Assembly: GCA_963665115.1 (NCBI GenBank)
Contig: OY762007.1
Span: 4,224,001-4,288,000 of the forward strand
From: an uncultured Rivularia sp.
GTDB taxonomy: Bacteria > Cyanobacteriota > Cyanobacteriia > Cyanobacteriales > Nostocaceae
Direction: 5' to 3'
Length of the DNA stretch: 64,000 bases
Positions 3,205-42,310 of the stretch are shown one piece after another. Each line of letters begins with the position of its first letter. Position 1 is the stretch's first letter. Position numbers and translations under genes: made by a program. The notes under the pieces are model-generated. The model was not told the DNA's origin. It saw only the letters and a program-made list of their open reading frames with translations, and made no database searches.

Positions 3205-3209
3205 TTACT

Positions 3210-11867: not shown

Positions 11868-11915
11868 GAGGCAGGGAGCGGGCATTAGAGTTTAAAAAAG
11901 GAAAATAGATAAGAC

Positions 11916-12236: not shown

Positions 12237-12248
12237 TAAGTTCCACAG

Positions 12249-14958: not shown

Positions 14959-14985
14959 ACTGAATAGTTACATGACTATAAAACT

Positions 14986-15696: not shown

Positions 15697-15710
15697 AAGA
15701 TTGCTACAGT

Positions 15711-16733: not shown

Positions 16734-16740
16734 AAAAAAT

Positions 16741-17541
16741 ATGACGAACTTAGATAATAATTTTAGTTCAGAATCAACTCAAAATAAAAGACTAAAATTT
16801 TTAAATCGTGCATCTAAAAATTTTTCAACTGGCGATAGTTTAGCTTTGTTTGCAGTTGGAACTTTTGGATTGCATCTGATAACATTTTTTATGCTTATAT
16901 TACTCTACGGTTCTTATTCACAATTAAATAAAAAGCCACCTCCTTCATTGGTTCAATTAGAAACAGGTAAAGCAATTAAAGTAGCACCGTTAGGAAATGT
17001 TGAACGCACTCCACAAGTAGTATCTCGTTTTGTTTCCGATACGATGACTTTAATGATGAATTGGTCGGGAACACTACCACCGAACACTGTTGAAGAAAAC
17101 GCAAAACCACTACAAGACAAAGGTGTAGATGTGGTCGAGCGTGGAGCAAGAGGAAATAAAGTTGCATCTAGAGCATGGCAAGCATCTTATGCGTTATCGT
17201 CCGATTTTCGTCAGGAGTTTTTGAAGAAGCTTGCTTCAATGACACCGCAGGGAGTTTTTAAAGGTACAACTCAAGTAGTTTTAATCCCGCTATCAATTCA
17301 ATCTCCTACCAAAATTGGTGAAGGAAAATGGAAAGTCAAAATGATTGCTAATTTGAATGTATTTAATCAAAGTAATAATTTAGGAGAGATAATTCCGTTT
17401 AATAAAGAGATATTTATTAGAGCAGTTATTGCACCAACGGAACCTATAAATACCAGTGATTTAGCTACTGTTGTTTATCAAGTGCGTGCTAGTGGATTAG
17501 AAATTTATGCAATTCGAGACTTACAAGCGGAGAATTTATAA
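16741..17541 (+). CDS. VirB8-like T4SS protein
   Basis: Single N-terminal TM plus alpha/beta domain; gene order. Confidence 0.5.
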   Translation: MTNLDNNFSSESTQNKRLKFLNRASKNFSTGDSLALFAVGTFGLHLITFFMLILLYGSYSQLNKKPPPSLVQLETGKAIKVAPLGNVERTPQVVSRFVSDTMTLMMNWSGTLPPNTVEENAKPLQDKGVDVVERGARGNKVASRAWQASYALSSDFRQEFLKKLASMTPQGVFKGTTQVVLIPLSIQSPTKIGEGKWKVKMIANLNVFNQSNNLGEIIPFNKEIFIRAVIAPTEPINTSDLATVVYQVRASGLEIYAIRDLQAENL

Positions 17542-19250
17542 TGAATTCGCAGTCTGAAGATAATGACTTAAAAAATTTAGATAAATCCGATAGTGATTGG
17601 AATGAAGTAAGTTTTGAGAAACTGCTTGGATTTCATGATGAGAACCAACCACCGAGGGAAAAGGAATTTACTGAAATTCAAGATAGTAAGTCCTCAGAAG
17701 TGCCGAACCAAACAGAACCGAGTCCAATTGCTACATATGAATTATTTGACTCTCCACATGAAGGTAAAACTCAATCTCATTTTTACAGCAATCCTTTCGC
17801 TAAATTCGGTGCAGTTGGTTTAGTAATGCTTGTTGTATTTGGTTCTGCTGCGACAGTTTTAAACAGCATTATGTCAGGTAGTCTTAAAACTGCACCAACA
17901 AAAGAATACTCAAAACAATCCAAACCCAAGGTAGAAATTGCCAATAATCCAATTGAAAGAGAAACGGGAAAATTAAAAGCGGAATTAGCACTCTCAACCC
18001 AAGCTGAAAAAATCAAATCTGTAGAACGTGCTAAAAGTCCTAAAACTACTGTGAATAAACCTAAAGATAAACGGGAGCAAGAGCCTTCTAGACCAGTCAC
18101 AACTCGAACAACTCCAACTACAGAGCCAACCAAACCTATTCGGACTCAAATAGTTTCAAGACCACCAGCGAGGACTCAAGCTCCATATATACCTCGTCTT
18201 CAACCTCAATCATCACCTTTAGGATATAATAATGAAACTCCGAGCGCTCCACCAGTACCTCAAGGGTCCCGCCAATTTCAGCCAGTTGCAAATAGAATTA
18301 GCAAACCTTCTTATCCCAAAGTTGAAGAAAAAACTGACCCGATGGAAGAATGGACTAAAATTAGTCGTTTGGGAAGCTATGGCAGCAGCGAAATTACGAC
18401 TAATACTGATGACCAGCAACAGAAAGGAAATACGTTTGATACCACTATACGAGATCAACAACAACCAACAATCCAAAATGCAACTTTAATTTCAGCAGTC
18501 CAGACAGCACAAACACTAAACAGTGATGAACTAGAACCGCTTTATAGTGAAGAAGCGGCAATTATTAGATATGAAAACAATTATCAATTACAGGTGGGGG
18601 AATCGGTTGATGGAAAGTTATTAACCCCTTTAATCTGGAGTAATCATTTTACTAGCAAGAATTCAACTCAACAATCTAAAAATAAGTCAAAAAGCGAAAA
18701 ATTTGTAATTGAACTGGAACAACCATTAAATACACCAGAAGGAAAAGTAGTCATACCTATCGGTTCTCAAGTTGTAGCTCAAATTAAGAACGTTAATCAA
18801 GGGGGGCTAATTGAACTTCAAGCAACTCAAGTTGTGATTGATGGTAAAGAATATATTCTCCCTCCAAGTGCGATCGCCATTCGTGGTAATTCCGGAAAAC
18901 CTTTAGTAGCATCTCGTTTAAACAGTAAGAAAGGAGAAATTGCAAGACGAGACGTAGAAACCTTCGCTGTTGGTTCTTTAGCGAAAGTCGGTAAAGTTCT
19001 TAATCAACCCAAAGAACAACAAATATCAACGAGTAGTGGATTTGGTGGTACTAACTCTTTCTCTTCTACGAGAAGAAGTCGAGAAAATATTTTAGGAGCG
19101 GTTTTAGAGGGAGGATTTGAACCGCTAACTCAACAAATTATCGAACGTAATCAGCAAGCACTACAAGAACTACAGAAACAAGGTGATGTTTGGTATGTCA
19201 AAGCTGGTACTGAGGTACAAGTCTTTGTGAATGAATCTTTTCAATTTTAA
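17541..19250 (+). CDS. TrbI/VirB10-like protein
   Basis: TM, Pro-rich linker and C-terminal beta domain (VIPIGS..., VKAGTEVQVFVN). Confidence 0.75.
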   Translation: MNSQSEDNDLKNLDKSDSDWNEVSFEKLLGFHDENQPPREKEFTEIQDSKSSEVPNQTEPSPIATYELFDSPHEGKTQSHFYSNPFAKFGAVGLVMLVVFGSAATVLNSIMSGSLKTAPTKEYSKQSKPKVEIANNPIERETGKLKAELALSTQAEKIKSVERAKSPKTTVNKPKDKREQEPSRPVTTRTTPTTEPTKPIRTQIVSRPPARTQAPYIPRLQPQSSPLGYNNETPSAPPVPQGSRQFQPVANRISKPSYPKVEEKTDPMEEWTKISRLGSYGSSEITTNTDDQQQKGNTFDTTIRDQQQPTIQNATLISAVQTAQTLNSDELEPLYSEEAAIIRYENNYQLQVGESVDGKLLTPLIWSNHFTSKNSTQQSKNKSKSEKFVIELEQPLNTPEGKVVIPIGSQVVAQIKNVNQGGLIELQATQVVIDGKEYILPPSAIAIRGNSGKPLVASRLNSKKGEIARRDVETFAVGSLAKVGKVLNQPKEQQISTSSGFGGTNSFSSTRRSRENILGAVLEGGFEPLTQQIIERNQQALQELQKQGDVWYVKAGTEVQVFVNESFQF

Positions 19251-19265
19251 CTAGGGGCAGCCGTT

Positions 19266-20036
19266 ATGAATATTTTGCAGTGGAAAACCACAATTGCTTG
19301 CTGTGTATTATTACCTCTGACAAATTTATCGCCAGTAATTGCAAGTGAAATAAAACAGAATGTGAAACAAATTCCCCAGGGAATTGCTACTGGTCATAAT
19401 TCCCAAAATATACCCAAAATTGAGTTGTCGCCCGGTTATGGAGTAAACATTTCATTTATTAAAAGTAACGAAATAGTAGAAAAAGTATGGTTAGATAATC
19501 CTGTATTCGCATCACTCGACGTGGATGGCTGTTTATCAACAGAGGGGAAAGAATGTGAAAAAGAAGGGGCAACGGTAATACATTTAAGACGAATTAAGCC
19601 GTTAAAAGTAAAACAATTACCATTATCTAATAGCAGCTTATTAACCGTAATTTCAAAAGGTAAATCGGGAAGAAAGGTATATTTATTTAAAGTGGTAATG
19701 GGAGATAAAACTCCTACTTTCCATACTCTAGAAATCATACCTGATATCAAAATATCTCCCGAAACGACTCAATTCTCTAACATTAAAAATAATGGCGAAT
19801 TGAAGCAAATTAGTCGAGGGTTAAAACTTGTTAGCAAAAGAGGCTTGATTCATCGAGAATCCCTTTTGTGGTCAAGAATAGCAAACTTCTTAGTGAAAGT
19901 AGGAATGGGTGAACCCGTTGACAGTGCTGCTCGTAGAAGTGGTATTTCGATGCGGTTGGTTAATCGCCTAATTGAACTAGGAAGTTTAAGAGGCAGGGGG
20001 CAGCGGGAGGGAATAAAGCGAAAGTATTTTACATAA
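19266..20036 (+). CDS. Secreted T4SS core protein (VirB9-like)
   Basis: Signal peptide, IELSPGYGVNISF..EKVWLDNP. Confidence 0.5.
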   Translation: MNILQWKTTIACCVLLPLTNLSPVIASEIKQNVKQIPQGIATGHNSQNIPKIELSPGYGVNISFIKSNEIVEKVWLDNPVFASLDVDGCLSTEGKECEKEGATVIHLRRIKPLKVKQLPLSNSSLLTVISKGKSGRKVYLFKVVMGDKTPTFHTLEIIPDIKISPETTQFSNIKNNGELKQISRGLKLVSKRGLIHRESLLWSRIANFLVKVGMGEPVDSAARRSGISMRLVNRLIELGSLRGRGQREGIKRKYFT

Positions 20037-20078
20037 ATCAAACTGTAGTAATGAAATTTTTAAATAGGTACTTATATT

Positions 20079-21758
20079 ATGAAATTACTAAAACAGAATT
20101 TAATATTTGCTTGGGGGGTGAGTTTATCACTTTTGATTTCTGGTGCGATTATTGTTGGGTTGCAACAGAAATCTATATCTAATTCTCCATCAAGACACTC
20201 GGAAATTCCTACAATTAAATGGCAAAATACTCGTTTACCAAATTGGAATCAAATTACGTTTTCTAAAATGCCAGCGATTACTGAACCTGGTTCATTTCAA
20301 GCACCTGAGATAGTGATTTCAAAGTTAGAATATGACCCATCTCGTAGTTGGGATACGGGACAAAAGCCTGATTCGTTTACAATGCTGGGTGATTTTCAGG
20401 ACTCTTTTAAACTCCAAGAATTTTCACTTTTGGATATTTCTCAAATTACTAGCTCTGATATACAAGAAGTTGACTTGTCCCGTTTTGGTGTATTCAAATT
20501 TCAAACAATAGAAAGCTTAGTTAAAGCAATACCTGATTTAGAAGAATGGAAGATAGGAGATGTAAAACCAATATATGATTTACTTTCAGAAAATTTATCC
20601 CAGCCATTTAACTCGAATCAAACTATAGGTAATTTGCTCAAAATATCTTCACATTTGGGTAAATTAAATTTTGAATCTTCGGATTTAACATCTTACAAAA
20701 TCGATTCAATTCCGGGATTATCAATAACTCCAATTGCTAGCTTTGACAAATGGCAAGGAGTTTATATTGATGAGGTACCCGGATTAAGCAATGTACCATT
20801 TTCCCAATTCCCCAATCCTGCTAACCCCATAGGAATGCAAGTTGGAATAGTAGATGTTGCGTTTGCAACTAACGAACAAAAACGAGATAGAACTATTTCA
20901 GGTAGTAACTTTGAAGGATTTGCAGTAGCTTGTGATAAAGATTGCGCCCATATTGAACTATCTGGCTCTCCAAGTGTTAAGGGTAAAGCTTGGGTTAGTG
21001 GTAAGTATCAGTTGGTTAAAGGTGGAGGAGGAATCTTAGGTTCGGTAAATGGTGGCAAAGAACCCACTGGTAGAAACCTATTTGGTGATGCTTTTAAAGT
21101 TGCTGTGTGGGATGTTTCTGAAGTAGATGGAAAAGTTTCTCAATCTTTATTCTTCCGGGTTTGTATGCGAAATAATTTCGTTGACTTAGGATGTACACCT
21201 TATTTTATTGGTCCGGTTCCGTTTATGACTTATAAGGAGAAGGAACCCATATTCTTAGGTACGATTGATTCTAATAAAAATTCGATGTCAGTACCTACAG
21301 GTTTAAACAGTAGCGGATTTAGTTTTGATAATTCTCCAATTATTTCTTCAAAGAAGGAAAATAATGTATTTAACTTGATACCTGTTGCAAAGGGAGATTG
21401 CAGAAATATTCATTCATCTAATACTAATCTTGATGCTTTAAGTGGAGCATTATTAGACGTAGAAAGTAGTTACATTACACAGAATTTTTCACCGACCGAA
21501 CAGCAATCTTTAATTGAATCAAACAATAGTGATTTACTATCAATTGCATCGCAGCAAACTGACCCAACCACAGGTAAACCTTTTACTGGAGACAGACTAG
21601 TTGAACGTGCAACTCAAATGCATTTCGCTGGTGTAAATATTCCTATTGATTCTCAAATTCGTGATGTGAGTAAGGGTATGACAGTCAAAGAATATGGAGA
21701 AAAAGCGAAAGCTAAATACAAGCATAATTTGCAATCAATGAATTGTTTATCAGATTAA
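20079..21758 (+). CDS. Secreted T4SS-associated protein with internal IP-L repeats and a possible degenerate lysozyme-like C-terminus
   Basis: N-terminal TM, repeated SIPGL/EVPGL, paired Cys, CAHIEL and KEPTGR motifs. Confidence 0.55.
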   Translation: MKLLKQNLIFAWGVSLSLLISGAIIVGLQQKSISNSPSRHSEIPTIKWQNTRLPNWNQITFSKMPAITEPGSFQAPEIVISKLEYDPSRSWDTGQKPDSFTMLGDFQDSFKLQEFSLLDISQITSSDIQEVDLSRFGVFKFQTIESLVKAIPDLEEWKIGDVKPIYDLLSENLSQPFNSNQTIGNLLKISSHLGKLNFESSDLTSYKIDSIPGLSITPIASFDKWQGVYIDEVPGLSNVPFSQFPNPANPIGMQVGIVDVAFATNEQKRDRTISGSNFEGFAVACDKDCAHIELSGSPSVKGKAWVSGKYQLVKGGGGILGSVNGGKEPTGRNLFGDAFKVAVWDVSEVDGKVSQSLFFRVCMRNNFVDLGCTPYFIGPVPFMTYKEKEPIFLGTIDSNKNSMSVPTGLNSSGFSFDNSPIISSKKENNVFNLIPVAKGDCRNIHSSNTNLDALSGALLDVESSYITQNFSPTEQQSLIESNNSDLLSIASQQTDPTTGKPFTGDRLVERATQMHFAGVNIPIDSQIRDVSKGMTVKEYGEKAKAKYKHNLQSMNCLSD

Positions 21759-21760
21759 TT

Positions 21761-22318
21761 ATGCAACCAAATATTTATAAAATTTATCAGTTTAAGTTGA
21801 AGAAGAATCGAACTGCTGCTTTGATTTTATTTATAGTTATCATGACTTTTACTGTATCGGCTTTACATACAATTTTATCTAATAATAATCGTATAGCTAC
21901 CTGGAAAAGCGCAGAGTCAGTTACACCACAACCTCTTCTAAAACAGGTTTTATCTCAAAAATCAACTCGCTATCTTGATATTTCCTCAATCAAAGTTATA
22001 CGAATCCCATCTCAAGGTGCTGGTCACTTATACATTTTTGATTATGCTTCTTCTCAACTTTGTGGTGCTGCTGGGTGCTTGTATTCAGTTTATAACAAGT
22101 CGGGTAAGCTACTTTTAGAATTTATCGCTAATTCCGGGCTACCTTATAGAGAAAAGTTAATTAAGGTTTCTGAAACTGCTAACCAAGGTTTTCCTTGCCT
22201 AACTATTACTCAAAGTACAAATACAGATGGATTACTATCACAAACCGAATTTTGTTATCAACAGGGAAAGTATATTGCCTTAAATAAAAGTTTTATTAGT
22301 CAAAAGAAAAATGAATAA
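21761..22318 (+). CDS. Hypothetical exported protein
   Basis: TM plus LCGAAGCLY motif; ATG at 21761. Confidence 0.55.
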   Translation: MQPNIYKIYQFKLKKNRTAALILFIVIMTFTVSALHTILSNNNRIATWKSAESVTPQPLLKQVLSQKSTRYLDISSIKVIRIPSQGAGHLYIFDYASSQLCGAAGCLYSVYNKSGKLLLEFIANSGLPYREKLIKVSETANQGFPCLTITQSTNTDGLLSQTEFCYQQGKYIALNKSFISQKKNE

Positions 22319-24138
22319 CAATTTTATATTGATACAACAACCATCAACAATACCAAAAAATTCTCAGATTGAAAAATTCGCTGATTTAATGAAATCACAA
22401 TCTGGCTTAGTGCTGCTAGGGTGTTTTGCTAGTATTGGTATTTTAAAATTAATTTCTGGAAGTAATTATAAAGGTAAAGTTGCTACCAGTTACTGGGGTG
22501 GTAGCCGAGAAAAATCTCAAGCAGCCAGAAAAGCGAAGAAGCAGATATCTAAACCGATTCGTAATTCTGTTGGATTATATGTTGGAACTCCCCCATACAT
22601 CAGAACTGCTCTACAAAAACAGTGGTACAAAGGCGGTTTCATCAAAACTAAACCAACTTTTAAACAAAAATTTCTTTCTTCCAATTCAACTTTGTATGTA
22701 CCAGATGCTCAAAGAGGAATAGCTGTTATCGGTGCAGCTGGTTCGGGTAAAACTTTCTCTGTAATAGACCCCGTTAATTCGTAGCGCATTCGACCAAGGT
22801 TTTCCAATGCTGCTCTACGATTTCAAGTTTCCAGCGCAAACGAAACGAGCTGTAGCTTATGCAATGAAGCGAGGTTACAGCGTAAGGGTGTTTGCGCCGG
22901 GGTTTGCTGAGAGTGAAACTTGCAATCCGTTAGATTTATTGAGGGATGAAGAAGATGCGATCGCAGCAGGACAACTTACTCAAGTAATCTCTCGAAACTT
23001 TGACAGAGGTGCGAATGCTAGCAGTGATAAGTTCTTTGAAGAAGCAGGAGATTCTTTGGTTGAGGGGATTTTACTTGTAACCAAAGCTATTAAAACTTTA
23101 ACTGGCGAAGATAAATATTGTGATTTAATGATGGCACAAGCTATTTTGTCTTTACCAAATCTAGCGACTAGACTCGAAGCTGCTTCCTCCGAAAAATTAA
23201 AAGTCTGGACTTCTCGACCATTATCACAATTAATCAGCGTCAAAGATTCAGAAAAAACAGCTGCATCAATTATCGGTACCGCACAGCGAATGTTTCAGCG
23301 CTTTCTCAAGCGTGATTTTGTTGGTGCTTTTTGCGGTCAAACAACGCTACCACTTGATTTAGATGGGAAGCAACTAATTATTTTTGGTCTGGATAGAAAC
23401 AACAGAGACATTGTTAGTCCGCTGCTTGCTGCGATTTTACACATGATTGTAACCCGCAACATCACCCGCACTATTCCCCGTAGTGACCCTTTGATTGTTG
23501 CTTTGGATGAACTACCAACATTCTATTTACCAGCACTCGTCAATTGGCTAAATGAAGGACGTGAAGACGGTTTCGTCGGCCTTTTAGGTTATCAAAATAT
23601 TGCTCAATTAGAGAAAGTTTACGGAAAAGAATTATCACGAGCAATATTAGGAGGTACTGCAACAAAATTTATTTTCAATCCCCAAGATCCTGAATCTGCG
23701 AAGATTTTTAGCGATTATTTAGGGGAGATGGAAATAAAATTTAATTCTAAATCTCGAAGTATGGGGAAAGGGGGTGGTTCTCACAGCAGCAACGAGCATC
23801 ATCAAAAGCGGCATTTATTGGAACCAGCGCAATTTGCAAAGATGGGTACTGGGAGAGCGGTAATTATTAATCCAGCTTACACTCGCGGCACAGAAGCATA
23901 CGTTCCCTTGTTGCATAAGTTGAAGGTTCCCCTCTCTGATATTGAAGAAATGAATTGGTCGGAAAGTAAATGGGATTTTGTAAGGGAACGATTGATTGAA
24001 AATAATGGCGTACAGGTGAGTGAGGAAGAACGTTCCGCACAATTTTTAGAGCGTAAAGCATTGGCGGAAAAATTATTTCCGTTACCTCAAGAAGGTGAAG
24101 ATTTGGCTTCACCAGAAGAATTGAACAATATATTTTAG
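22311..24138 (+). CDS. virD4: Type IV coupling protein VirD4/TraG (frameshift near 22770)
   Basis: GAAGSGKT, YDFKFP, CNPLD, LDELPT, GYQNIAQL; the two ORFs join at gacccc. Confidence 0.88.
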
Positions 24139-24149
24139 AGTCAAATACA

Positions 24150-24476
24150 ATGACACAAAAACAAGTTAATTCCAATCCAGAAGTATTTTCAATTTTATCG
24201 CACTATCCAAGATGGCTAGAAATGGTCGATGAAGCAAAGGAAAAACCAGTTTTTGATAAAAATTATTGTCCCCATGTAATTGAAATATTTGACCAGCATG
24301 GTCTGTTGGCTGGAAAAATCAACGGATTATCCGCTTATGAATGTACTAGAGATATTCAACAAAAAAGTGATTTCAATGCTTGGCTGCTTGATGGAAAATT
24401 AGCCATATTTTATGTTGGATCTTCCTTAATTGTAAATCGTTTGGAAGCAGTAGCTTTAGTTAGCAAAGGAGAGTAA
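24150..24476 (+). CDS. Hypothetical protein
   Basis: Operonic ORF after virD4. Confidence 0.55.
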   Translation: MTQKQVNSNPEVFSILSHYPRWLEMVDEAKEKPVFDKNYCPHVIEIFDQHGLLAGKINGLSAYECTRDIQQKSDFNAWLLDGKLAIFYVGSSLIVNRLEAVALVSKGE

Positions 24477-24481
24477 ATGAA

Positions 24482-25856
24482 ATGCCAAACATATTTACTG
24501 TCAACGAAAGCGATGCAACAGCAATGCAGCAAAGGTATGAGCAATTAATTGAAGTCTTGTTAAAAGCTGTATTGGATGTTGAACAAAATTCGGACAAACA
24601 AGGATTGAAAATATTTGATGGGGATAAATTAGTTTATGGACGTGATGAAAATCAATTTCGTGATCAAGTATCGGGTTTCTCAGGGGAACTATTAAATCCT
24701 CAATTAATCGCACAACTTCAACAATTGCGTTCTACTTCAATTGGGGAATTTGTAGATGGGGCTGCCAATAAGAAAGTTGAACTAGATGGGAAAGTTGTCT
24801 TACAATCTGATTCGGAAGGTAAGGTAATCGTTAACAATTTTTTGGAGCAAGAAGCTGTTACAGGTAAAAAGCCACAAAATTTAGAATATTGGGAAAATCT
24901 AGGTAATACTAGTCAAATTAATCAACCAGAATTATTGTCACCTTCTGACCCTACCTTCTTATACAAACTCACCTCCCGTTTCGGGTTCCACACGAGTAGC
25001 AGAATCACTTTCGGTATTAGAAGATAGTCCTTTGAAAACATTATTAATTACAGAGGTTGAACAATTAAAAGCAGAAATAAAAGCGTTACACCAAGAACGT
25101 AGTTTATATCAGGAGCTAATTGAGCAAAGGTTAAAGCAGCCACAAAATACCTCATGGTGGCAGCAAATTATTAATAATGCATCGACTGTCGTAAGCAGTG
25201 TAACTTCTGCCGTAAAAATAGGAGTACGTGAATTTAAAGAAAATTCAAAACAACATCAATTTGCAGCATCAATAAAAAACTTATTTCAATTGCAAACCCA
25301 AGCAGGAGAAAACCAGTATCAAGCTGGTGATTACCAAATCTCTCGCAATGGTTCGTTGTATGAAGTTAAAGATTCGGCGACAGATAAGCAAATAATACGG
25401 TTTCGAGACACAAATTTGGGAGTTCAGGTAGAAGAAAGCGATTTAGTAAATGTAAATATTCAAGATATTAACTCATTACAAAGTTCTCTACAAAAAAACG
25501 AACCAATTCCTGCATCTTTTGCGCCAGTCGGAAAACAAGAAGCTGAATACTTTGCTCGTATTGAGATAGTTACAAATGCGCTTGTAGAATATGCTGCTGC
25601 ACAACAGCGAGATGTAGAAATTGATGGTCGATTTTCTTACAAATGGAAAGCTAGTCCTGATGGTAACGTACAAATTGAAGCAAAAGATGGACGCAGTACT
25701 TTACTAGAAAAAACTGGAGGGCAGTTAACAAGTAATATGAACGAACGCGATTTAATCTATTTTGAGCAAATTTTACCTAACTTGCAGTCAAGAAGTCAAA
25801 GACAAGTAATTACATCTCAATCGAATCAAGCTACCGATAACAGCTTAGAAAGATAA
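24482..25856 (+). CDS. Hypothetical coiled-coil protein ending -SLER (one gene; frameshift near 24950)
   Basis: Deleting one C at 24949-24951 fuses 24482-25027 in frame with 25032-25856. Confidence 0.65.
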
Positions 25857-25865
25857 TTTTATTAT

Positions 25866-27435
25866 ATGAAGTTCGATAAATTGAATTTATATATCGATTC
25901 TGGTATTCCAATTGTTTGTGTTAATGCCCCTTTACCAGAACGAATGAACGTATTAGATAAAATTTACATTGAATGCTCTAAAAGGCGGAATATACCCCTT
26001 CATGTATGGAATGCTGCTTGGGGATGCTTTAAGCAAGTAAAATATAATTCGCATTCAATTGGGAGCTTTATTAATCCACAACCTAAATACAATAATATTT
26101 TTACTAATTTTGATTACTTATTAAATAGTGATAAAGCAGGCATTTTTATATTTGAAAATCTATCATCATTAATCAGCATAGATTCTCCACAAATTGTTTC
26201 GTATTTAATCAATATTTACTTTGAGTTTAAGAATAGTGATAAATTGAAATGTTTGGTGATTTTATCAACTGATGATGTTGAGTTACCACAATCCTTGAGT
26301 AATTTGATTCCTAGTATTTCTTACCCACTTCCTAGTCATAAAGAAATTGCCACTTTAATAGAAGAATTTTTATATGAATCACTACCTATAGTAAACAAAC
26401 AGCCGTTAATAAGTGCTTGTGCTGGTTTAACAAAGGAGGAGATATGTGATGGGCTAAACATTGCACTAAATTCTTGTTCTCTATTAAGTTATGATGTTTT
26501 CACCCAACATTTACTTGAATATAAGATAAATCGCTTCCGTTCTTTCAATTTAAACTTTATAGCCAAACCAAACATTCCTGATTTTGGTGGTTTGGATTTA
26601 CTCAAAAAGTATATAGAAAATGTCAAATACGATTTTTCACCTCAAGCACGAACTGCGAATATTTCTCTTCCTAAAGGTTGCTTGCTGGTAGGGACCACCG
26701 GGAACGGGAAAGACTTTATCAGCTAATGTAATAGCTAAAATATTAGGGTTTCCTTTAATTAGTGTAGATACTGCTCTTATAATTACCGATGGTGCGATTT
26801 ACCTCAAACGTCTGTTAGAGCGAGTAGAAGCTTGCGCTCCTGTGGTGATGTATTTTGATGAATTTGATAAACTTTTTGCCGCGTCAAATGAGTCAGGAGA
26901 GGACATTAGTTCTCGCCAAATCTTGGGAACACTATTAACTTGGTTACAAGATAAAACAAGTGCAGTGTTTGTTGTTGCAACTCTAAACCGACTTGATGCA
27001 TTACCACCGGAGTTAACCAGGGTAGGAAGATTTGATGAAATATTTTATGTGGGATTTCCCCAAGCTATCGAACGGAAAGAAATTTTGATGATGCATCTTT
27101 CTAGATTTGATAACCGTTATAAAAATGGCGATGTGCTTTCAGAGAAAGAATGGCGAATTGTACTTAATAAAACTGTTAATTGTACGGGCGCTGAACTTGC
27201 ACAAATGGTTCAGAAGGCTGCGCGTAGCAAGTTCCATCAAGGTAAAAAGATGGAAATTGGGTTGCACGAACTATTAGAGCAGCGAGAAATGATGGTTCCT
27301 TTATACGTTAGAGATACGGATAGAATTTTAGCGATCGCCAATCGTGCAAAATATATTACTCAGCCTGCTTCGAGTCCGGATACATCGGTTTTTGCTCCCG
27401 CTATTACTAGCTTTTGGGGAGAAGTTTCTTCTTGA
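25866..27435 (+). CDS. Ycf46-like AAA+ ATPase (frameshift near 26692)
   Basis: GGLDLLK, PKGCLLVG(PPGTGKT) restored by removing one G, FDEFDK, LPPELTRVGRFDEIFYV. Confidence 0.85.
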
Positions 27436-30066: not shown

Positions 30067-30145
30067 AAATGCAGGGGCAGGCTTAGTGTAGATAGATATC
30101 GGATACAACACGAGTTAATTAGTTTTAAAGCCTGCCCCTACATTT
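30067..30145. repeat. REP-like inverted repeat just after the mobV stop
   Basis: aaatgcaggggcaggctt ... aagcctgcccctacattt. Confidence 0.6.
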
Positions 30146-31749
30146 AAGGTTCCATCTCATGACTTGAATCATTTGGCTTTAGTTCCATAGCGTGCGGTAG
30201 AGACTTTTGTACCGCGACTATTCTTTCAAAGGGCATAAAAGTGACTATAGTAGGCATATTTCGTAGGTATTCTAATGGTAATGGAGCGTATTCACTATCA
30301 ACCGAAAGGTATAGCGTCCTACATTTATGGGGAGCATTACTTGCTGTCAACTGCAATGCTTTGATAGGTGACTCTACCAATACTGCTTTTTTCGTAGCAG
30401 TCTCAGAGCTTTCACCCATACTTAAATGGAACCAACCTTTTGAACGTTTGCTTCCTGAATGCAAAATAAAATCATTACTACTTTGATTAGGAGAATATAG
30501 ATAAGCTCCTGTTGCTTCACCCCTTAAGCTCCGCGCCAAAAAAACTGCATTACCTTTGATATCTGCATATATCAACTTTCGTTTATATAAGATTTGAACT
30601 AAGCTTTGAGGAATAGAATGTTTTTGTTTGAGATAGTATTCAACTTGCTGCCAATGACTGGGTGAAGGAGACGGTGGTACGAATTGTGTATGAGACTTTT
30701 GATGTGCAATGCTTAATGCTTTGTCAACTGCTTGATTTTTAACCGCAGCTAACATACGCTCGGAGCCAAATCTATCGCACAACCAAACAAGTGCATCATC
30801 GAATTTACATTGATTGACTTGCATTACTAAGTCAATAGCGTCACTTGAGTGTAATTGCCTATCTTGATTTAATCCAAGTTCGTAAGCGACTAATTCTAAA
30901 GGTAATTTTTGAGGTTGAATTGATGTTTTAAGAATTTCTAATTCGGATTCTATCTGTTGCCGTAGTGTTTCGCCGCAACGTGTAGTTTGCTCTAATTGTC
31001 CTTTTTGTCTGAATAAGCGAGAGCGTTCGTTGAGTTGGTAATTAATTATCTCAAACTCTGGAGTTAGAATTTCAATAACTCGCTGTCGATATTCTTCACC
31101 TGTTTCATGTACCAGGGCTTTGGGAAAAAAGCGTTCTACATTTAGAAGTTGAGAATCTTGATTGACAGCAGAATAATATTTTTTGAGTGTTGTATAGGTA
31201 GCTGTGCTGCCTTTAATCCCACGAGATATCCCCAAATGTGCAACAGCATCTCCAAAACTATCTTGTAGTTCAGATAATTTAATTTTTCCACCAAATAATC
31301 CACGACAGTTAAGCTTGCCTCTTTCATCTATTGGTACGAGATAAGCGTGAACATGAGGTGTAATTTCGTCGAGGTGTAACTCTGCTCTGACTATTCGTTT
31401 CTCCCCAAGAAGACTGCAACCAATTAACTGTTGCTTCCACAAATTTATCTAAACGTTGTTTGTCATAAATTCCCGCTTCATGAGGTGCTTGCGGACGGAA
31501 ATAGGAAGCACTAGCACTAAGCAGCATTTCTACTGCAAGCACAGCATTTGAACGGATTTTCTGCAAACCAATTTTGTCTTTTACCAAAGTTGATAAATTT
31601 ATCTCGTCCTTTTCACCAATAATTCGTATATTAGTGACTTCTGGGTTGGCATTTGGCGTATCTCTTTTTCTTGTGGCGTGAGCTTCATTGCCTTGCAACA
31701 TTCCCCAGGTTTTGATTTTTTGGATTCTGCAAACAGCTAGTGGCATCAT
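30144..31749 (-). CDS. mobV: MobV (Mob_Pre) relaxase with a C-terminal DUF3991/TOPRIM-like region (frameshift near 31400)
   Basis: H.TR..DTPNANP, IRSNAVLAVEMLLSAS, ELHLDEITPHVH; C-terminal VLVESPIKAL. Confidence 0.88.
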
Positions 31750-31893: not shown

Positions 31894-32564
31894 TATTTGT
31901 AAACTAATTTGAAGTTATAATTGATCGGATGATAGCTTCTTATAAATGTATTTTTACACAGATTTATTTTAAGATATTTACAGTTGAAATTAATATGTAG
32001 CAGTATATTCCGCAGTTCGTACTATTTTAGCTGAAGTAACGATTTATCTTCTAAATAGATATATTTTATACAATTTATTTTTAGCATATTTGCCCTTTTA
32101 AAGAAATCTATCTTTTGTCTGATTGAATAAATGGGCTTTCATTCGCTAACAAGGTAGAGAAGGAACACCGGAATATTGGTTTATGCAAAACTTTTTTAAA
32201 CTTACGAGCAGTTTTTTTTCAAATGATTTCGATTTACTCATAAGTCGAGCTAATCGCAAAGCTATGTTAATTTTCTCAGTCGTTTTTACATAGGGAGAAA
32301 TACGGCTCTTGTTCCGGAAAGTCGAAAATTGTAATGTAATCTTTTTCCGTTACGATAAGTAAATTGTGTAGTGTGTTCACATTCGGCACAAACTAAAGTT
32401 AAAAATTTCATGCTCAACCCACCTAAAAAATATATGGGTTTTGAGAAAACACAAGATTGTAAGAGACGATTGTTGGAAGTATTTCTTTGATGAAGCCGCA
32501 GGTACAAAGTTCTGGAATTCTGTGTAGAGTTATTTTACAAGAATTCGCGCCTTTCTTTTTAAGC

Positions 32565-36659: not shown

Positions 36660-39600
36660 ATGGTTATAAAACTCAATCATTTCGATACTAAGACAAAGCA
36701 AGATACCGGAATTGAGGAAAAATTAGAGAATACGCTAGCAGAATACTTATTTCCTGGTGTTGAGTTTCGCATTGGCACTGCTTACCCTGAAGCCACTATT
36801 CCACAAGATTTAGAAGAACACAATGGAATGACTCTACAGTTCTCGGCTCGTAAAAGAATGTATTTTGCAAACGATCCAGATGTACGCTCATTACTCTACC
36901 CAAACCCTTCTGATGGTGCTGCTTATCCTCTACCATTTACACCTTGTCGAAGTTTTCACGAGTTGCATAATATTAGGATACTGGTAATTGATGATGTAAC
37001 GGGAGATTCAGGTGGAATTATTGCTACGAGTGATGCCAAAAAATTAGTTGGTGATTGTAAAGGCTTAATAGATAAAGATTTTGCCTCCTCGAACAATATA
37101 GAACCGCGTGCTTTTCAATTCAGACTTGGTATCAGACCTCAAAAACAAAGCCATGTGATGCGAATTGCTAAAGGTACGCTTGCACCCGAAAGACTAGATA
37201 AATTAGGAGAATCGAAATTACAGATAAGCGGTAGCGCTAGAAAAGGTACTATTAGAACCAGAACTGGATATGATATGGTACTGGCTACTTCTTCTTTTAA
37301 AGGTAGAAAAGGAGAAGACGCTATCAAACCTGGAGAATACCTATTTGATATAGGTTTAGGTGTTAAATCAGTCGCTCAATACAGACAACATAGTTTAGGA
37401 ACCCAGATTTTAGTTAATTATCCTCGCGCTGTCAAAGAAGAAATCTTACCAATTCTGAAGCAGCAAGCAGAAGAATTAGCATCATCACAAAAAAGTCCCA
37501 GGGAATTAGCCCAAAAATACGTTGAAAACTACGAACACCGCAAAGCACTTTTAGAAGATATTAAGAAGGAAACTATTACGGAAACAGATGAAAAATTATC
37601 AGAAAAACTAGCTATATTAGATTGCTTTTGTTGTAATACTGAAGATGAAGAAATTAACCAAGAAGAAGAATTAAGCGCAGAGCAAAAAGACTTATTAATC
37701 TATTCTTTATTAAAAGTAGATTTAAACAATTTTTGTCAACTAATTGAACATCCTAAAATCGTAGCCGAACTGCAAGAATTCGCTCGTAAAGAATGGGTTG
37801 ATATTGCTACCGGACGTTCAATAAAGTTTATGTCGGGTTTAGCTCAACCTAATTTAGATTTACAGGAAGATGAAATCTGTATTCCATATTTGAAAGAAGG
37901 TTTAGAAATTATAGTAACTCGTTCGCCTTTAATTAATTCAAATGGCGTAATTACCTTAAATAATAAACATTTACCGAAAATGCTATCGGGATGCGTTTAT
38001 ATAAATCCTAAAACAGCAATGGATAATATGCAGTGCGATTTCGATGGTGATTTACTAGCTTTTGCATCGAGTGAAGAGTTTCCAATAATGACAGAAGAAG
38101 TCAAACAAAAGAATTTACCTGTAAATAAGTACCCTGATATTGTCAAAAAAGAAAAAGTTCCCTATCAAGGAAGTTTTCCTGAAATTGCTGTTTCTGCGAT
38201 GGAAAATAAAATTGGGATTATTGCTAATGAAATTCAAAAAAATATTGCCCTTCGGTGTGAAATTGATGAATTACCGCAATCCATAAAAGTCGAATATATA
38301 CAAAAAGTTTCAACACATTTAAATTATATTTTATCAAAGCATAGTCATACAACTTTACAACTTCCAGAAGACAGATTAAATAGAATATATCAAATTGCTC
38401 GTACTGGTAATACATCTTTAGATACAAATCAAGTTGATATACAACTTCAATCCTTTAAAAAATTATTAAAAGATTATGTTTCAGAACTTAGTAACGAATT
38501 ACAAGTTGCTACTGACGGAGCTAAAAGTGCATTGCGACCTGATAATAATATTATTCAACATTGTCAAGTAGTAACTAGTTATAAAGAAGTAGAATGGCTG
38601 GCTGATAAGAAAAATACGGAAGCTTTTACTAATAAAGGTATGGCTACAAATGGTTTGAGTCCAATTGATTTAATGATTCAACAAACAAATCGAATATTTG
38701 AAGAAAACCAAATTATAGCTAGACCTATTGAACAATTTAGAAATCTTTATCCTACAATTGAATTTACCTCCGAACACAAACAGCAAGCTCAAAATATTAG
38801 ACATAAATATAATTCTTTAATAAAAGAACGTATTGAATTACAGGAAAGAAAAAAGATAGAACCGGGTGCTTATATAGTTATTAGTTCTCCAATAAGCGGA
38901 CGCAAATTAGAAGTTACTAATTTAATTAAATATGACATATCCAAAGATACTGAATTTTGGAATGCAACAGAACTTAGTATCACGATAAAACCAAGACAAC
39001 CTACTTTAAAATTACCCCATCCTTTATCTGCCTGTATTCAATATCAGACTCCTGAAGGTGTAAATAGAATTAAACCCATTGGCACAATTAGTATGAAATC
39101 AATGGCAGAAAATAATCTTAAACCTGGAATGACAATAAAACAAGGTAAAGTTGAATTTTACTTTGGAATTAGTCATAGTATGATTGATGCTTTGAAGCAG
39201 CAAACTCTTGAATACGTCGAGTCAATTAGAAATAGCACTCCGGATAATGAAAAGCTACAGCTAGCAGCTGCAATTCATGATATTAGTCATACCGAAGAAA
39301 ATAAAAATTATGTAGGACTAAAAAAGGCAGGTGTGGCGTTTTCTATATTTATCGACGAAGTTATAGGTCAATTAAATCAGTTACAGTTTACCCAAATGAG
39401 AGTGCTTGGTACTCAGTTCAATCATTATGCTAATCAAAACTTTGCTGGTGAAAAAGTCCCAATAAAATTTGAAAATGGAATTAATCCTCGTGCCCCCAAT
39501 CAAACTGCGCGTTGGATAATAGTAGAAGGTAAAAAACTCGGTACTATCAATGGTTCTTCCCCTCATTTACTTGCTGGGTGTGAAGCAATTGCTAGCATCA

Positions 39601-40457
39601 ATTCTCTTTCCAGTAAAAGCGTAGTTATTACTAGTTCAAAAAATCCCGATAATAAATTGCAGATTGATAAGGTTAATAAATATGCTTTTAAATCTAATCA
39701 GTGGCAGAATGAAGAAGCGAATATTGCTTTAGCTATAGGACAAACTAACCCTAGGGGCGCACCAACTGTTTTCGCAAAAGTAGATAATAAAATATTAGGA
39801 ACCGTTAATAAAAAATCAGTCAAATTTTTACAAGAAAAACTTAACGCTGTTGGTAAATCAATCCAGGGATTTACGTTTTCTGGTACTTTAAAAAATGCTC
39901 CTGCTAGCTATGCGGATATTATAATTGACCCCTCGACCGTAAAATTTCCACAAATTGAAACTAGCTCACAACAGGATAATAAAAGCTTGATTGAAAGTAA
40001 TGAGCCTGTTTGCACTGTTTTATTTTTTGAAGCATCTGTAGATAGTAAGTTTCAACAGAAAACAGAGCAAATAATGGCTAATATGCTTAAACGGGCTGTT
40101 GAACGTGCGGTGGAGTTAGGTTACTCCAAGGTACAGTTTGTTGATGTTTCTACAAATACCACAGAGTCTTCAGCTTTAAGAACTGTTGAACAACTTACGG
40201 CTGAACACAAAGATATTAAAGTTGATTTTATAGGTGGTGCGTCCGTAGAAGATGCAATTGGACTGATGAAGAAACCAACAGATATTGTAATTGGGATAAA
40301 AAATACTCAAACCATTGGCATGATTGATTTTGTCGCTGCTCAAGGAAAGGCGATCGCCACTTACAATCCCCAAACACAGAAATTTGATAGACGGAATTTA
40401 CCTGCTCCGAGAAAGACTGCTGAAATAACTAAAGATATTGAACGCGACGAACGTTGA
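36660..40457 (+). CDS. Single-subunit two-barrel RNA polymerase (eukaryotic RdRP/YonO-like) with C-terminal SLOG-like domain
   Basis: Ordered motifs GDCKGLI, AFQFR, AKG, SSFKG, LGTQIL, VTRSP, CDFDGD (38037-38051), IGIIAN, VATDGAKS. Confidence 0.82.
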   Translation: MVIKLNHFDTKTKQDTGIEEKLENTLAEYLFPGVEFRIGTAYPEATIPQDLEEHNGMTLQFSARKRMYFANDPDVRSLLYPNPSDGAAYPLPFTPCRSFHELHNIRILVIDDVTGDSGGIIATSDAKKLVGDCKGLIDKDFASSNNIEPRAFQFRLGIRPQKQSHVMRIAKGTLAPERLDKLGESKLQISGSARKGTIRTRTGYDMVLATSSFKGRKGEDAIKPGEYLFDIGLGVKSVAQYRQHSLGTQILVNYPRAVKEEILPILKQQAEELASSQKSPRELAQKYVENYEHRKALLEDIKKETITETDEKLSEKLAILDCFCCNTEDEEINQEEELSAEQKDLLIYSLLKVDLNNFCQLIEHPKIVAELQEFARKEWVDIATGRSIKFMSGLAQPNLDLQEDEICIPYLKEGLEIIVTRSPLINSNGVITLNNKHLPKMLSGCVYINPKTAMDNMQCDFDGDLLAFASSEEFPIMTEEVKQKNLPVNKYPDIVKKEKVPYQGSFPEIAVSAMENKIGIIANEIQKNIALRCEIDELPQSIKVEYIQKVSTHLNYILSKHSHTTLQLPEDRLNRIYQIARTGNTSLDTNQVDIQLQSFKKLLKDYVSELSNELQVATDGAKSALRPDNNIIQHCQVVTSYKEVEWLADKKNTEAFTNKGMATNGLSPIDLMIQQTNRIFEENQIIARPIEQFRNLYPTIEFTSEHKQQAQNIRHKYNSLIKERIELQERKKIEPGAYIVISSPISGRKLEVTNLIKYDISKDTEFWNATELSITIKPRQPTLKLPHPLSACIQYQTPEGVNRIKPIGTISMKSMAENNLKPGMTIKQGKVEFYFGISHSMIDALKQQTLEYVESIRNSTPDNEKLQLAAAIHDISHTEENKNYVGLKKAGVAFSIFIDEVIGQLNQLQFTQMRVLGTQFNHYANQNFAGEKVPIKFENGINPRAPNQTARWIIVEGKKLGTINGSSPHLLAGCEAIASINSLSSKSVVITSSKNPDNKLQIDKVNKYAFKSNQWQNEEANIALAIGQTNPRGAPTVFAKVDNKILGTVNKKSVKFLQEKLNAVGKSIQGFTFSGTLKNAPASYADIIIDPSTVKFPQIETSSQQDNKSLIESNEPVCTVLFFEASVDSKFQQKTEQIMANMLKRAVERAVELGYSKVQFVDVSTNTTESSALRTVEQLTAEHKDIKVDFIGGASVEDAIGLMKKPTDIVIGIKNTQTIGMIDFVAAQGKAIATYNPQTQKFDRRNLPAPRKTAEITKDIERDER

Positions 40458-40492: not shown

Positions 40493-42310
40493 ATGACAAT
40501 GCTTTTTGATATCGAGCAATATCACCATCGGGATTCACAACATCACAAAGGTGACTGGGATGGTGTAAAGTACGATTCTGCTTGGGATGATGGTTCTGCT
40601 TTTCCACAAATTAACCATAAAACTTCTTCAAAAGAAACAGCACGTAGTAAGAAAACAGACTGTTGGTATACCCCACCTCATATTATTGAATTAGTTATCC
40701 AGGTTTTGGGAGAAATAACTCTTGACCCTTGCGCCGATGATGGACGACATATAAGAGCAGCAAAGCATTATACCTTTGATGACGATGGGTTGAAGCAGCC
40801 TTGGTACGGGAAAGTTTATATGAACCCTCCGTACTCACATCCTGGTCTTTGGATGAAGAAGCTGCAACTAGAATTTGAAACGGGTAATGTGGATGAAGCA
40901 ATTGCTCTTGTACCTGCTGCTACCGATACCAATTGGTTATCTCCGGTTTTGAAAACTCAACCTGTATGTTTTTGGAAGGGGAGAATTAAGTTTTTAGGTC
41001 AAGATTATCAACCAAAATTATCTGCAAGACAGTCTCATGTGTTGGTTTATTGGGGTAACAATTGGCAGAAATTTAGGGAAGTATTTGAAGACTATGGAGT
41101 GGTATATTTCCCAATTCCCCCTGTTGATAATAACGAGGTGCTAGGGGAAAACATATCACTTAACAATTCCCCTAGCACCCGGATGGAAGATAAGAGCCAA
41201 ACCCTTGATAATAGTTCATCAACATCAAATCTTTCAAATGCTCAACTAAGTAATGATGACCAGGTGCTAGGGGGAAATATATCACCTAACAATTACCCTA
41301 GCACCCAGATAGAAGATAACAGCCAAACCCTTGATAGTAGTTCATCAACATCAATTCTTTCAAATACTCAAATAAGTAATGATAACCAGGTGCTAGGGGG
41401 AAATATATCACTTAACAATTCCCCTAGCACCCGGATGGAAGATAAGAGCCAAACCCTTGATAATAGCTCATCGACATCAATTCTTTTAAATACTCAAATA
41501 AGTAATGATGACCAGGTGCTAGGGGAAAACATATCACCTAACAATTCCCCTAGCAACCGAATAGAAGATAATAGCCAAACCCTTGGTAATAATTCATCAA
41601 CATCAATTCTTTCAAATACTCAAGTAAGTAATGATAACCAGGAGAAGCGGGAAAACATATCACCTAACAATTCCCCTAGCACCCGAATAGAAGATGGAAG
41701 CCAAACCCTTGATAGTAGTTCTTCAACATCAAATCTTTCAAATACTCAAGTAGGTAATGATAATCAGGTGCTAGGGGGAAATATATCACTCAACAATTCC
41801 CCTAGCACCCGAATAGAAGATGGAAGCCAAACCCTTGATAATAGTTCTTCAACATCAAATCTTTCAAATGCTCAAGTAAGTAATGATAACCAGGTGCTAG
41901 GGGGAAATATATTACCTAACAATTCCCCTAGCACCCGGATAGAAGATGAAAGTCAAACCCTTGTTAATAGTTCATCAAAATTAAGTCATGCAAATACTCA
42001 ACTAAGTAATGATGACCAGGTGCTAGGGGGAAATATATCACTAAATAATCCCCCTAGCACCTATCGTAAACGCGGTGAGGGCAGCGGTAATATTTCATGG
42101 GGTTATGCAAATGCTAATAGCACTAAAAAGAAACCAGTCAAACAGCTTTATTTCGAGTGGGAATATAGGGGTAAAAGAGGAAAGACTTATGTGCGATCGC
42201 ACTTCTTCGAGCAAGTTATTTCAATGAATGAAGCGAAAGTTCCAGTTGTAGTGATATTGAAATTATTAACTTACAATCCAAAAGTAGCGGGTGCTTTGGG
42301 TCTTAATTAG
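40493..42310 (+). CDS. Phage Dam-like N6-adenine DNA methyltransferase with 42-aa repeats and a basic C-terminal domain
   Basis: WYTP, LDPCA, VYMNPPYS, LVPAATDTNW, GRIKF. Confidence 0.85.
   Translation: MTMLFDIEQYHHRDSQHHKGDWDGVKYDSAWDDGSAFPQINHKTSSKETARSKKTDCWYTPPHIIELVIQVLGEITLDPCADDGRHIRAAKHYTFDDDGLKQPWYGKVYMNPPYSHPGLWMKKLQLEFETGNVDEAIALVPAATDTNWLSPVLKTQPVCFWKGRIKFLGQDYQPKLSARQSHVLVYWGNNWQKFREVFEDYGVVYFPIPPVDNNEVLGENISLNNSPSTRMEDKSQTLDNSSSTSNLSNAQLSNDDQVLGGNISPNNYPSTQIEDNSQTLDSSSSTSILSNTQISNDNQVLGGNISLNNSPSTRMEDKSQTLDNSSSTSILLNTQISNDDQVLGENISPNNSPSNRIEDNSQTLGNNSSTSILSNTQVSNDNQEKRENISPNNSPSTRIEDGSQTLDSSSSTSNLSNTQVGNDNQVLGGNISLNNSPSTRIEDGSQTLDNSSSTSNLSNAQVSNDNQVLGGNILPNNSPSTRIEDESQTLVNSSSKLSHANTQLSNDDQVLGGNISLNNPPSTYRKRGEGSGNISWGYANANSTKKKPVKQLYFEWEYRGKRGKTYVRSHFFEQVISMNEAKVPVVVILKLLTYNPKVAGALGLN
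41137..42061. repeat. 126-bp tandem array (8 units), each with an 11-bp-arm inverted repeat
   Basis: ggtgctagggg-N21-cccctagcacc at 41137, 41263, 41389, 41515, 41641 (degenerate left arm), 41767, 41893, 42019. Confidence 0.92.

Follow-up and report, generated by a model that had tools for sequence, protein, structure and literature searches.

A probable single-chain two-barrel RNA polymerase in the conjugation backbone of cyanobacterial mobile elements

Introduction

What use does a conjugative element have for an RNA polymerase of its own? The question is raised by a window of 64,000 nucleotides from an uncultured Rivularia sp. (assembly GCA_963665115.1, contig OY762007.1, positions 4,224,001 to 4,288,000 of the forward strand; coordinates below count from its first letter), in which hupS is interrupted by an XisF-type element of 139,430 bp (139.4 kb) that carries a full conjugation system together with heavy-metal resistance cargo. 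A sequence-only reading of one long gene of this element had proposed a single-subunit polymerase resembling RNA-dependent RNA polymerases (RdRPs) and YonO, possibly delivered by the type IV secretion system (T4SS). Predicted structure, conservation and gene context bear out the first part of that proposal: the gene probably encodes a real, conserved and active two-barrel RNA polymerase that belongs to the cyanobacterial conjugation backbone. Proteins of this family were first described in 2010; a literature search, which left most subscription papers outside its reach, found no experimental study of the cyanobacterial proteins and no link to conjugation.

The polymerase and its predicted fold

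The gene and its predicted parts are as follows.

36660..40457, + strand: single-chain two-barrel RNA polymerase gene, 1265 residues from the ATG (predicted fold, conservation)
36660..38849, + strand: polymerase core, residues 1-730, with two double-psi barrels; D132, R155/K171/K214, R421-x-P423 and D460/D462/D464, the DFDGD motif lying at 38037-38051
38856..39947, + strand: three homologous beta-barrel repeats (residues 733-838, 908-984 and 984-1096) around a helical insert (hhalign)
40002..40409, + strand: variable C-terminal Rossmann-type alpha/beta domain, plausibly SLOG-like, found in 50 of 107 aligned sequences
40410..40457, + strand: disordered tail ending DIERDER (pLDDT below 50), a candidate T4SS signal from the tail counts given below

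The open reading frame (ORF), for which an alternative in-frame TTG start at 36624 would add 12 codons, contains all the motifs that the sequence-only reading had listed, in the order claimed: GDCKGLI (residues 131-137), AFQFR (151-155), AKG (170-172), SSFKG (211-215), LGTQIL (246-251), VTRSP (419-423), QCDFDGD (458-464), IGIIAN (518-523) and VATDGAKS (616-623), with KDIERDER (1258-1265) at the end. A search with residues 1-720, in which 7996 candidates were scored, returned 188 homologues, and the named ones among the matches listed are cyanobacterial. In an alignment of 107 rows (the query and 106 of 120 listed homologues, omitting the query's cluster representative and 13 short or partial matches), D132, R155, K171, K214, R421, P423, D460, D462, D464, D619 and K622 are invariant (107/107). 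Among 117 more distant locus-derived sequences from five clades, none of the 112 ungapped rows lacks the Asp triad, and the position of R421 is occupied by Arg in 102, Cys in eight, Thr in one and a gap in six. Conservation of the three Asp of DFDGD across homologues, without which the sequence-only reading would have counted as refuted, holds in both sets. The eight residues given as invariant among two-barrel polymerases in the relevant section of PMC2919709 (in QDE-1, D709, R738, K743, R962, P964, D1007, D1009 and D1011) have counterparts in D132, R155, K171, R421, P423, D460, D462 and D464, matched by motif order, not by residue-level superposition. Judged by sequence conservation, the motifs are not due to chance. 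The frame is also intact in independent assemblies of near-identical Rivularia records, L008 being 99.98% identical without gaps over 34418-39405 and L009 having indels inside the ORF that compensate one another.

A midpoint-rooted tree of 49 representatives (57 of the 106 homologue rows were dropped as more than 80% identical) places four T4SS-linked clades apart from one prophage-like clade. Sequence searches of the Protein Data Bank (PDB), with the single protein and with the 107-row profile, gave no match at E<=10, so that the relationship to polymerases of solved structure is visible only by fold. Pfam and NCBIfam scans found no real family for the protein, which does not match the Pfam RdRP family PF05183 at E<=0.01; three homologues of clade C (L099, L100 and L101) pass the gathering cut-off of that family. 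Among PHROGs, the window polymerase matches phrog_34895, a group of unknown function (E 5.5e-14), and the prophage-like clade matches it far better (E 1e-54 to 1e-66). A search of phages gave weak Lactococcus phage matches only (E 0.07-0.4) and no direct sequence match to YonO.

An AlphaFold2 model of residues 1-1129 (pLDDT 85.7, pTM 0.82) was compared with 48,161 chains by VIA-align. The best match is gp62 of Thermus phage P74-26 (Z 19.6, root-mean-square deviation (rmsd) 4.1, 508 residues aligned), followed by RDR2 (Z 16.4), QDE-1 (14.9), gp96 (12.5) and cellular RNA polymerase subunits (about 10), with double-psi beta-barrel matches at residues 386-490. In Foldseek the top matches are RDR2 and QDE-1 (E 1.6e-10 to 1e-8), ahead of the P23-45/P74-26 RNA polymerases and crAss gp66, and a viral structure library returns phage proteins, some of them labelled RNA-dependent RNA polymerase. 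The structure prediction thus yields the double-psi beta-barrel fold that the sequence-only reading had expected on comparison with QDE-1 and the barrels of cellular RNA polymerase.

The three barrel repeats that follow the core are linked by hhalign (R1-R3 95.8%, R2-R3 97.4%, R1-R2 24%) and also match clades B and C. Their identity as HIRAN domains, which bind 3' ends of single-stranded DNA (ssDNA), is a lead only: ESM Atlas gave 0.88 and 0.85, below the lead threshold of 0.9; hhalign against a shallow cyanobacterial HIRAN alignment scored them no better than shuffles; and no HIRAN structure appears in either VIA list, each of which is filled by one domain. Residues 1115-1250 resemble members of the SLOG superfamily over the whole domain (LOG Z 8.2, rmsd 3.2, 120 aligned; YpsA 7.8; MCP 7.4). 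Unrelated Rossmann folds score equally (fucosyltransferases Z 8.5 and 8.4, Card1 8.2), and the SLOG label, drawn from the model, is for that reason plausible and no firmer. Pfam gave no SLOG match in the polymerase, and when the C-terminal model was compared by Foldseek, all matches combined barrel and Rossmann parts at rmsd >20 A and are uninformative.

This end of the protein is exchangeable. Among 31 proteins scanned, homologues replace it by RNase H (fusions L065 and P0118), DUF3991, cpYpsA or DUF4326 modules, and in P0110 a DUF3854 primase domain is inserted in the core itself, after the Asp triad and before the helical motif that lies downstream. Longer fused forms amount to one protein among 3246 candidates, a weak indication. 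The homologue on plasmid beta of Nostoc PCC 7120 (L085:20001-27746) reaches 2581 residues, with C-terminal stretches that by eye look 2OG-Fe(II) oxygenase-, NADAR- and SLOG-like; none has a Pfam match at cut-off. As to expression, metatranscriptome contigs from two runs of one sample are scattered, at depths of 3-14, with few on the polymerase ORF, and such contigs are unable to rank genes.

Linkage to conjugation

From left to right, the element carries the XisF recombinase, a primase-helicase, the T4SS operon, an AAA ATPase, MobV on the minus strand, a candidate origin of transfer (oriT), ParM, a TraL-like ATPase, DUF6753, the polymerase, a Dam-type methylase and the metal-resistance cargo.

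7110..10197, + strand: replication module of the element, a Toprim-type primase-helicase, split at 9329
11286..27435, + strand: MPF_C-type T4SS operon (pilin-like, VirB3, VirB4, VirB6, VirB8, VirB10, VirB9-like, VirD4, AAA ATPase)
30144..31749, - strand: MobV relaxase with DUF3991 and a degenerate Toprim domain, split at 31398 by an extra base absent from L009
32808..35937, + strand: ParM-like, ParR-like, TraL-like ATPase and DUF6753, a conserved block between oriT and polymerase
40493..42310, + strand: Dam-type adenine methyltransferase, directly 3' of the polymerase, and also 3' of it in a subset of related loci

From position and size we take five of the T4SS genes to be VirB3, VirB6, VirB8, VirB9 and pilin, and from position alone one gene to be ParR-like. 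VirB10/TrbI and VirD4 are recognised by Pfam, VirB4 by weak TIGR matches, and the operon as a whole by synteny (PMC4027160). The methylase contains about nine imperfect internal repeats and lies in the predicted leading region.

The genome holds four polymerase copies, every one of them (4/4) at the end of a T4SS cluster; one copy is truncated at 860 residues and another is split. The replication modules of the four elements are of two kinds, two being Toprim primase-helicases and two a DnaB-like gene, and their integrases comprise one serine recombinase and three putative tyrosine integrases (from N-terminal sequence); the DnaB-like and tyrosine integrase genes were read by eye and are presumed to be such. 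Relaxases beside homologues are MOBV, MOBP or MOBF. The polymerase thus persists where integrase, replication module and relaxase vary, and it follows the relaxase/ParM/T4SS block, not the replication module. Across 44 loci with at least 9 kb upstream, ParM is found in 37, DUF6753 in 37 and MobV in 33, which, with the four copies beside T4SS clusters, confirms the co-occurrence with T4SS and MobV loci that the sequence-only reading had asked after.

The polymerase is found on 92 PLSDB plasmids, all cyanobacterial among the 60 listed, and by hand count on at least 48 of 60 listed VirB4 plasmids (of 115). Among 251 genomes, with at most four candidates scored per genome and kin not independent, 23 have polymerase and VirB4, ten polymerase only, 11 VirB4 only and 207 neither. 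Eight of the ten polymerase-only genomes carry members of the prophage-like clade, with genes such as HU, ligase, lysozyme and HNH around them, and the other two hold fragments. The polymerase is, in sum, a backbone gene of cyanobacterial MPF_C conjugative elements and plasmids, and homologues lie on plasmids alpha and beta of Nostoc PCC 7120, a strain whose homologues include WP_010999746.1 and WP_010993977.1.

Two groups stand at the edge of this pattern. Proteins of the prophage-like clade (L086-L094) are about 870 residues long, and an HU gene comes after them in 6/8 scanned loci. In 8/9 of them the Arg equivalent to QDE-1 R962, which contacts the 2'-OH, is Cys or Thr, a substitution that might alter sugar selectivity. 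The fifth T4SS-like cluster of this genome (G000:C1 7642213-7652280) is without a polymerase, and no VirD4, MobV or polymerase match was seen nearby. Its VirB4 group (about 62% identity; G147, G095, G035, G044 and G201) is mostly on chromosome-sized contigs, and in three genomes with only this group the polymerase was not found; the cluster is possibly a domesticated secretion or DNA-uptake system.

Known relatives

Some 50 YonO-like proteins, including one cyanobacterial family, are described in the pertinent section of Ruprich-Robert and Thuriaux (2010, PMC2919709), and a passage of Aravind et al. (2012, PMC3417536, citing Iyer and Aravind) places such proteins in selfish elements, with RNase H fusion and the idea of a primase. 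As these passages have it, the cyanobacterial YonO-/RdRP-like proteins are single chains with eight invariant residues, some are fused to RNase H, and a primase role was already suggested. The window family, compared by description only, has the same traits: single-chain, cyanobacterial, with RdRP similarity confined to the catalytic region and RNase H in some members. The difference lies in the setting, which in those passages is 'main genomes' or selfish elements with nucleases, conjugation being unmentioned there, and here is the backbone of MPF_C plasmids and elements.

The RNA polymerases of Thermus phages (P74-26 gp62 and P23-45 gp64, PDB 8F5M and 8F72, and the virion polymerase gp96) have the same minimal single-chain two-barrel fold, with 508 of 592 residues aligned in the best match, gp62. 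Identity is about 11%, however, and the phage enzymes transcribe phage genes from proposed phage promoters, whereas the window polymerase belongs to a conjugative element and extends the fold by three beta-barrel repeats, a Rossmann domain and a tail. QDE-1 of Neurospora, RDR2 of plants and PF05183 agree with it in fold, Asp triad, R-x-P gate and motif order, but identity to QDE-1 and RDR2 is 13-15% and the window polymerase has no RNA-silencing context. YonO of Bacillus phage SPbeta, as characterised in the available text of PMC5467207, is likewise a single-chain DNA-dependent two-barrel RNA polymerase of a mobile element, but transcribes late phage genes, whereas the surroundings here are T4SS, relaxase and ParM and not a late structural operon of a prophage. 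SogL (IncI1) and TraC (IncP) are alike only in the proposed job, that of a protein carried through a T4SS to act on transferred DNA. TraC is a transferred primase, and both are Toprim primases whose fold is unrelated to the two-barrel one.

Elements of the XisF/fdxN type that interrupt heterocyst genes are known (Hilton et al., 2016, PMC4874684); two of the four hupS elements tabulated there measure 30.4 and 91.0 kb, whereas the window element measures 139.4 kb and has a full conjugation system. The main text of that paper contains neither 'conjuga' nor 'plasmid'. In the accessible text of PMC5512222, polyvalent proteins are scarce in cyanobacteria and 'RdRP' does not occur. MPF_C conjugation was, as of 2014, without experimental or computational study according to PMC4027160, whose passage on eight profiles omits the polymerase.

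What the polymerase may do

The predicted two-barrel fold and intact catalytic residues make it very probable that the protein is an active enzyme. Its template is highly likely to be DNA and not RNA, to go by context and the closest structures, and its function is likely to be tied to conjugation, not to integration or vegetative replication, as the shuffling of modules suggests. The predicted direction of transfer bears on what the enzyme may do in conjugation.

32366..32377, + strand: predicted oriT core, a 12-mer, with the nick placed between 32375 and 32376

This 12-mer is common to 21/38 mobV-parM intergenic regions and resembles the MobM site beside the G/T nick of pMV158, as that site is given in the section consulted of PMC5863519. 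By analogy, the nick would fall at 32375/32376, and the + strand would be transferred from 32376 rightwards, toward parM and the polymerase. The polymerase gene would then enter after 4.3 kb, and the relaxase and T4SS genes last. Over the first 10 kb past the predicted nick, 17 loci hold 46,897 sense and 2,190 antisense codons, the polymerase itself accounting for about 45% of the sense ones. As its gene, like the neighbours, is sense on the transferred strand, it would be unreadable from the incoming strand before second-strand synthesis, and an enzyme needed before that step would have to arrive as protein. With so few genes readable on the incoming strand, the geometry favours priming over early transcription; the suggestion in the sequence-only reading that the enzyme transcribes early genes from incoming ssDNA fits poorly.

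We tentatively prefer a polymerase that is delivered by the T4SS and primes the complementary strand in the recipient, while rating this reading as a whole below an even chance. Export through the element's own T4SS by way of the tail is an evenly balanced proposition. Given export, it is slightly favoured that the enzyme would lay RNA primers on the transferred strand, from which the host DNA polymerase would make the second strand. This priming step is suggested by the oriT geometry and by analogy with QDE-1, which starts de novo on ssDNA (a passage of PMC9508822); hundreds of SogL primase molecules are likewise passed on in conjugation (a passage of PMC8406263). Fusions of homologues to RNase H, DUF3854 and DUF3991 are also counted in favour of priming. 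A fuller version, in which the three barrel repeats of the injected enzyme grip the incoming single strand as it primes conversion to double-stranded DNA, is doubtful.

The tail bears on export. An acidic Glu followed by Arg or Leu (E-R/L) within the last three residues occurs in 22/59 polymerase tail clusters against 58/2793 host ORFs, and in 0/9 prophage-like homologues, 0/17 ParM, 0/5 TraL-like and 2/14 MobV tail clusters. A pattern derived from relaxases is found in 22/28 relaxase-like proteins, 9/13 clade B and 6/7 clade C polymerases, with 0/8 in the prophage-like clade and 23/2793 in the background. At the level of sequence, then, T4SS-linked clades are enriched for acidic E-R/L tails and the prophage-like clade is without them. 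The delivery proposed in the sequence-only reading has circumstantial support to this extent, together with the relaxase-like tails of two clades other than that of the window, and is weakened by the relaxases of the window's clade, most of which lack such a tail.

Two tails outside the polymerases may be recorded here. In clade C elements (L099, L102-L105, L122 and L123) the gene upstream of the pilin-like gene ends ELQV, ELQA or EMQV, a relaxase-like tail. The T4SS-operon protein at 24482-25856, a single ORF of 455-467 residues in paralogous elements, ends SLER or ELMME; its C-terminal region resembles by eye the C-terminus of the PCC 7120 polymerase homologues, making it a second candidate T4SS substrate.

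Several points weigh against a delivered primase. In clade A, that of the window, the relaxase-derived pattern is found in only 6/46 tails, or in 16/46 in relaxed form (window included), and the E-R/L count of 2/14 for MobV shows how few of this clade's relaxases share the tail. Both tail patterns were defined post hoc, and kin are not independent. Inside the elements of this genome E-R/L is not enriched (3/98 against 90/5108, p=0.25), two of the three proteins being polymerases. A 143-kDa multidomain protein is a large cargo for a T4SS. The nick position is taken over from pMV158, and the nearest match of known structure is a phage transcriptase that works from promoters. Two polymerase-bearing Nostoc plasmids also have TrwC-helicase-DUF3854 relaxases (2/2 checked), with Toprim motifs resembling those on a polymerase-free Nostoc plasmid.

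The last observation bears on a further idea. Three polymerase-free elements with Toprim primases had suggested that the polymerase and transferable primases exclude one another, which was rejected because polymerase-positive plasmids have them too and because the primase of one of the three, L179, resembles a vegetative primase-helicase. As MOBF plasmids with relaxase-fused DUF3854 primases can carry the polymerase, it does more than just stand in for a missing primase. In 27/28 proteins the Toprim fused to the relaxase is degenerate, with or without a polymerase, and so does not discriminate between readings. Complementary-strand priming, also raised by the sequence-only reading, is thereby left with the support of the oriT geometry and without that of mutual exclusion with relaxase-fused primases. 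One polymerase-free element (L193:13204-20000 and L161) encodes a giant polyvalent protein, SNF2-like with MutS-I, DUF6908, DUF3991 and an intact Toprim, that ends TEVER.

A close rival of the delivered primase, rated only slightly lower, is a transcriptase acting in the donor, like YonO or P23-45 gp64. On induction of transfer it would start at a promoter of its own and transcribe the T4SS operon of 16 kb, or other genes of the element. The best structural match, gp62, is a non-virion phage RNA polymerase, and its counterpart P23-45 gp64 is proposed, in the part consulted of bioRxiv 10.1101/2022.12.01.518664, to recognise a promoter motif of its own; YonO, a processive enzyme, serves a single late operon (accessible text of PMC5467207). 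The strict T4SS linkage and the coexistence with primases fit as well. In 22 polymerase-positive elements, however, the 450 bp ahead of the pilin-like gene contain no motif common across clades; the most frequent 10-mers (10/22; shuffles 6-7) come from the coding end of a neighbouring gene in a single clade. A donor enzyme would have no need of enriched tails or of exchangeable cargo domains, and related T4SS clusters without a polymerase exist.

It is improbable that the enzyme is delivered by the T4SS to transcribe early establishment genes in the recipient, in the manner of a virion RNA polymerase. Its structural kin gp96 and crAss gp66 are packaged in virions, and the tail enrichment and the long homologues with polyvalent-type cargo (cpYpsA, DUF4326, RNase H) would suit such a role. 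The first-entering genes are sense on the transferred strand, however, and would offer little ssDNA template, and after second-strand synthesis host RNA polymerase could serve.

Still less probable is a primer of vegetative replication for the plasmid or excised circle in the carrier cell. This would accord with the primase idea in the passage cited above from Aravind et al. (2012, PMC3417536), and in two of the four elements of the genome a DnaB-like helicase is seen, while nothing there matches the window's primase. A primase-helicase is, however, present in the window element itself, and the polymerase travels with the conjugation block instead of the replication module.

It is very improbable that the protein is a genuine RNA-dependent polymerase, producing dsRNA or antisense RNA for defence or silencing, or else an inactive relic. 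RDR2 and QDE-1 lead the Foldseek list, three homologues match the Pfam RdRP family and two of the four genome copies are truncated or split, but no Argonaute or dicer-like gene was seen among scanned neighbours, and the invariance of the catalytic residues excludes a family-wide relic.

The element in hupS

The left end of the element, and the genes it interrupts, are as follows.

3065..3199, - strand: 3' part of the split hupS, its end approximate; hupL comes next, from 2947
3200..3224, no strand: left attachment site inside hupS, with a 2-bp core at 3200-3201; the partner core is G000:C1 4366630-4366631, 139,430 bp off and beyond the window
3262..4398, + strand: XisF-type large serine recombinase (NF041201, 417.8 bits, cut-off 375), at one end of the element

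Serine recombinases use 2-bp cores. In-silico joining at the core restores a HupS of 320 residues, and the circle junction bears a 17-of-23 inverted repeat; with the XisF recombinase, this marks an integrated conjugative element that doubles as an interruption element of the heterocyst type. Blastn found no long direct-repeat attachment sites, and no joint pointing to excision was seen in four contig sets over 2600-22500, contigs being prone to drop rare forms. Contigs X6 and X4, from two other studies, depart from the window at 11 sites of the hupS piece, and over the 2.7-3.1 kb of element that follow they show no difference. A nearly identical left end in a different hupS allele suggests that the element was recently mobile and entered another host; alternatively, the flank recombined.

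Six single extra bases that break element genes (4359, 9329, 12476, 26691, 31398 and 34288) are absent from independent assemblies. The base at 4359, in the recombinase, is absent in 4/4 runs and that at 9329, in the primase-helicase, in 3/4; these bases are likely errors of the present assembly. For the six frameshifts a degenerate element was accordingly rejected as their explanation; a break in VirD4 near 22,790 and another near 25,000 stand apart. The neighbouring hupL is interrupted too: its 5' piece (2423-2947, - strand) stops near 2423, and the gene continues about 8.6 kb further left (G000:C1 about 4217775), so a second element splits the same hup operon.

Significance

Any of the three leading mechanisms, whether delivered primase, donor transcriptase or delivered transcriptase, would add a new role to those of two-barrel polymerases. 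If the delivered primase is correct, it would be both the first primase with a two-barrel fold and the first case of conjugation delivering an RNA polymerase; its carrier element would also be one that is excised during heterocyst development. Because the element must be excised to restore hupS, it links horizontal transfer with developmental gene rearrangement. The polymerases of RNA interference (RNAi) in eukaryotes have been proposed to derive from priming enzymes of selfish elements (a passage of PMC3417536), and the literature search found no test of that origin. With homologues on the plasmids of Nostoc PCC 7120, the family makes both MPF_C conjugation and the origin of RNAi polymerases directly testable.

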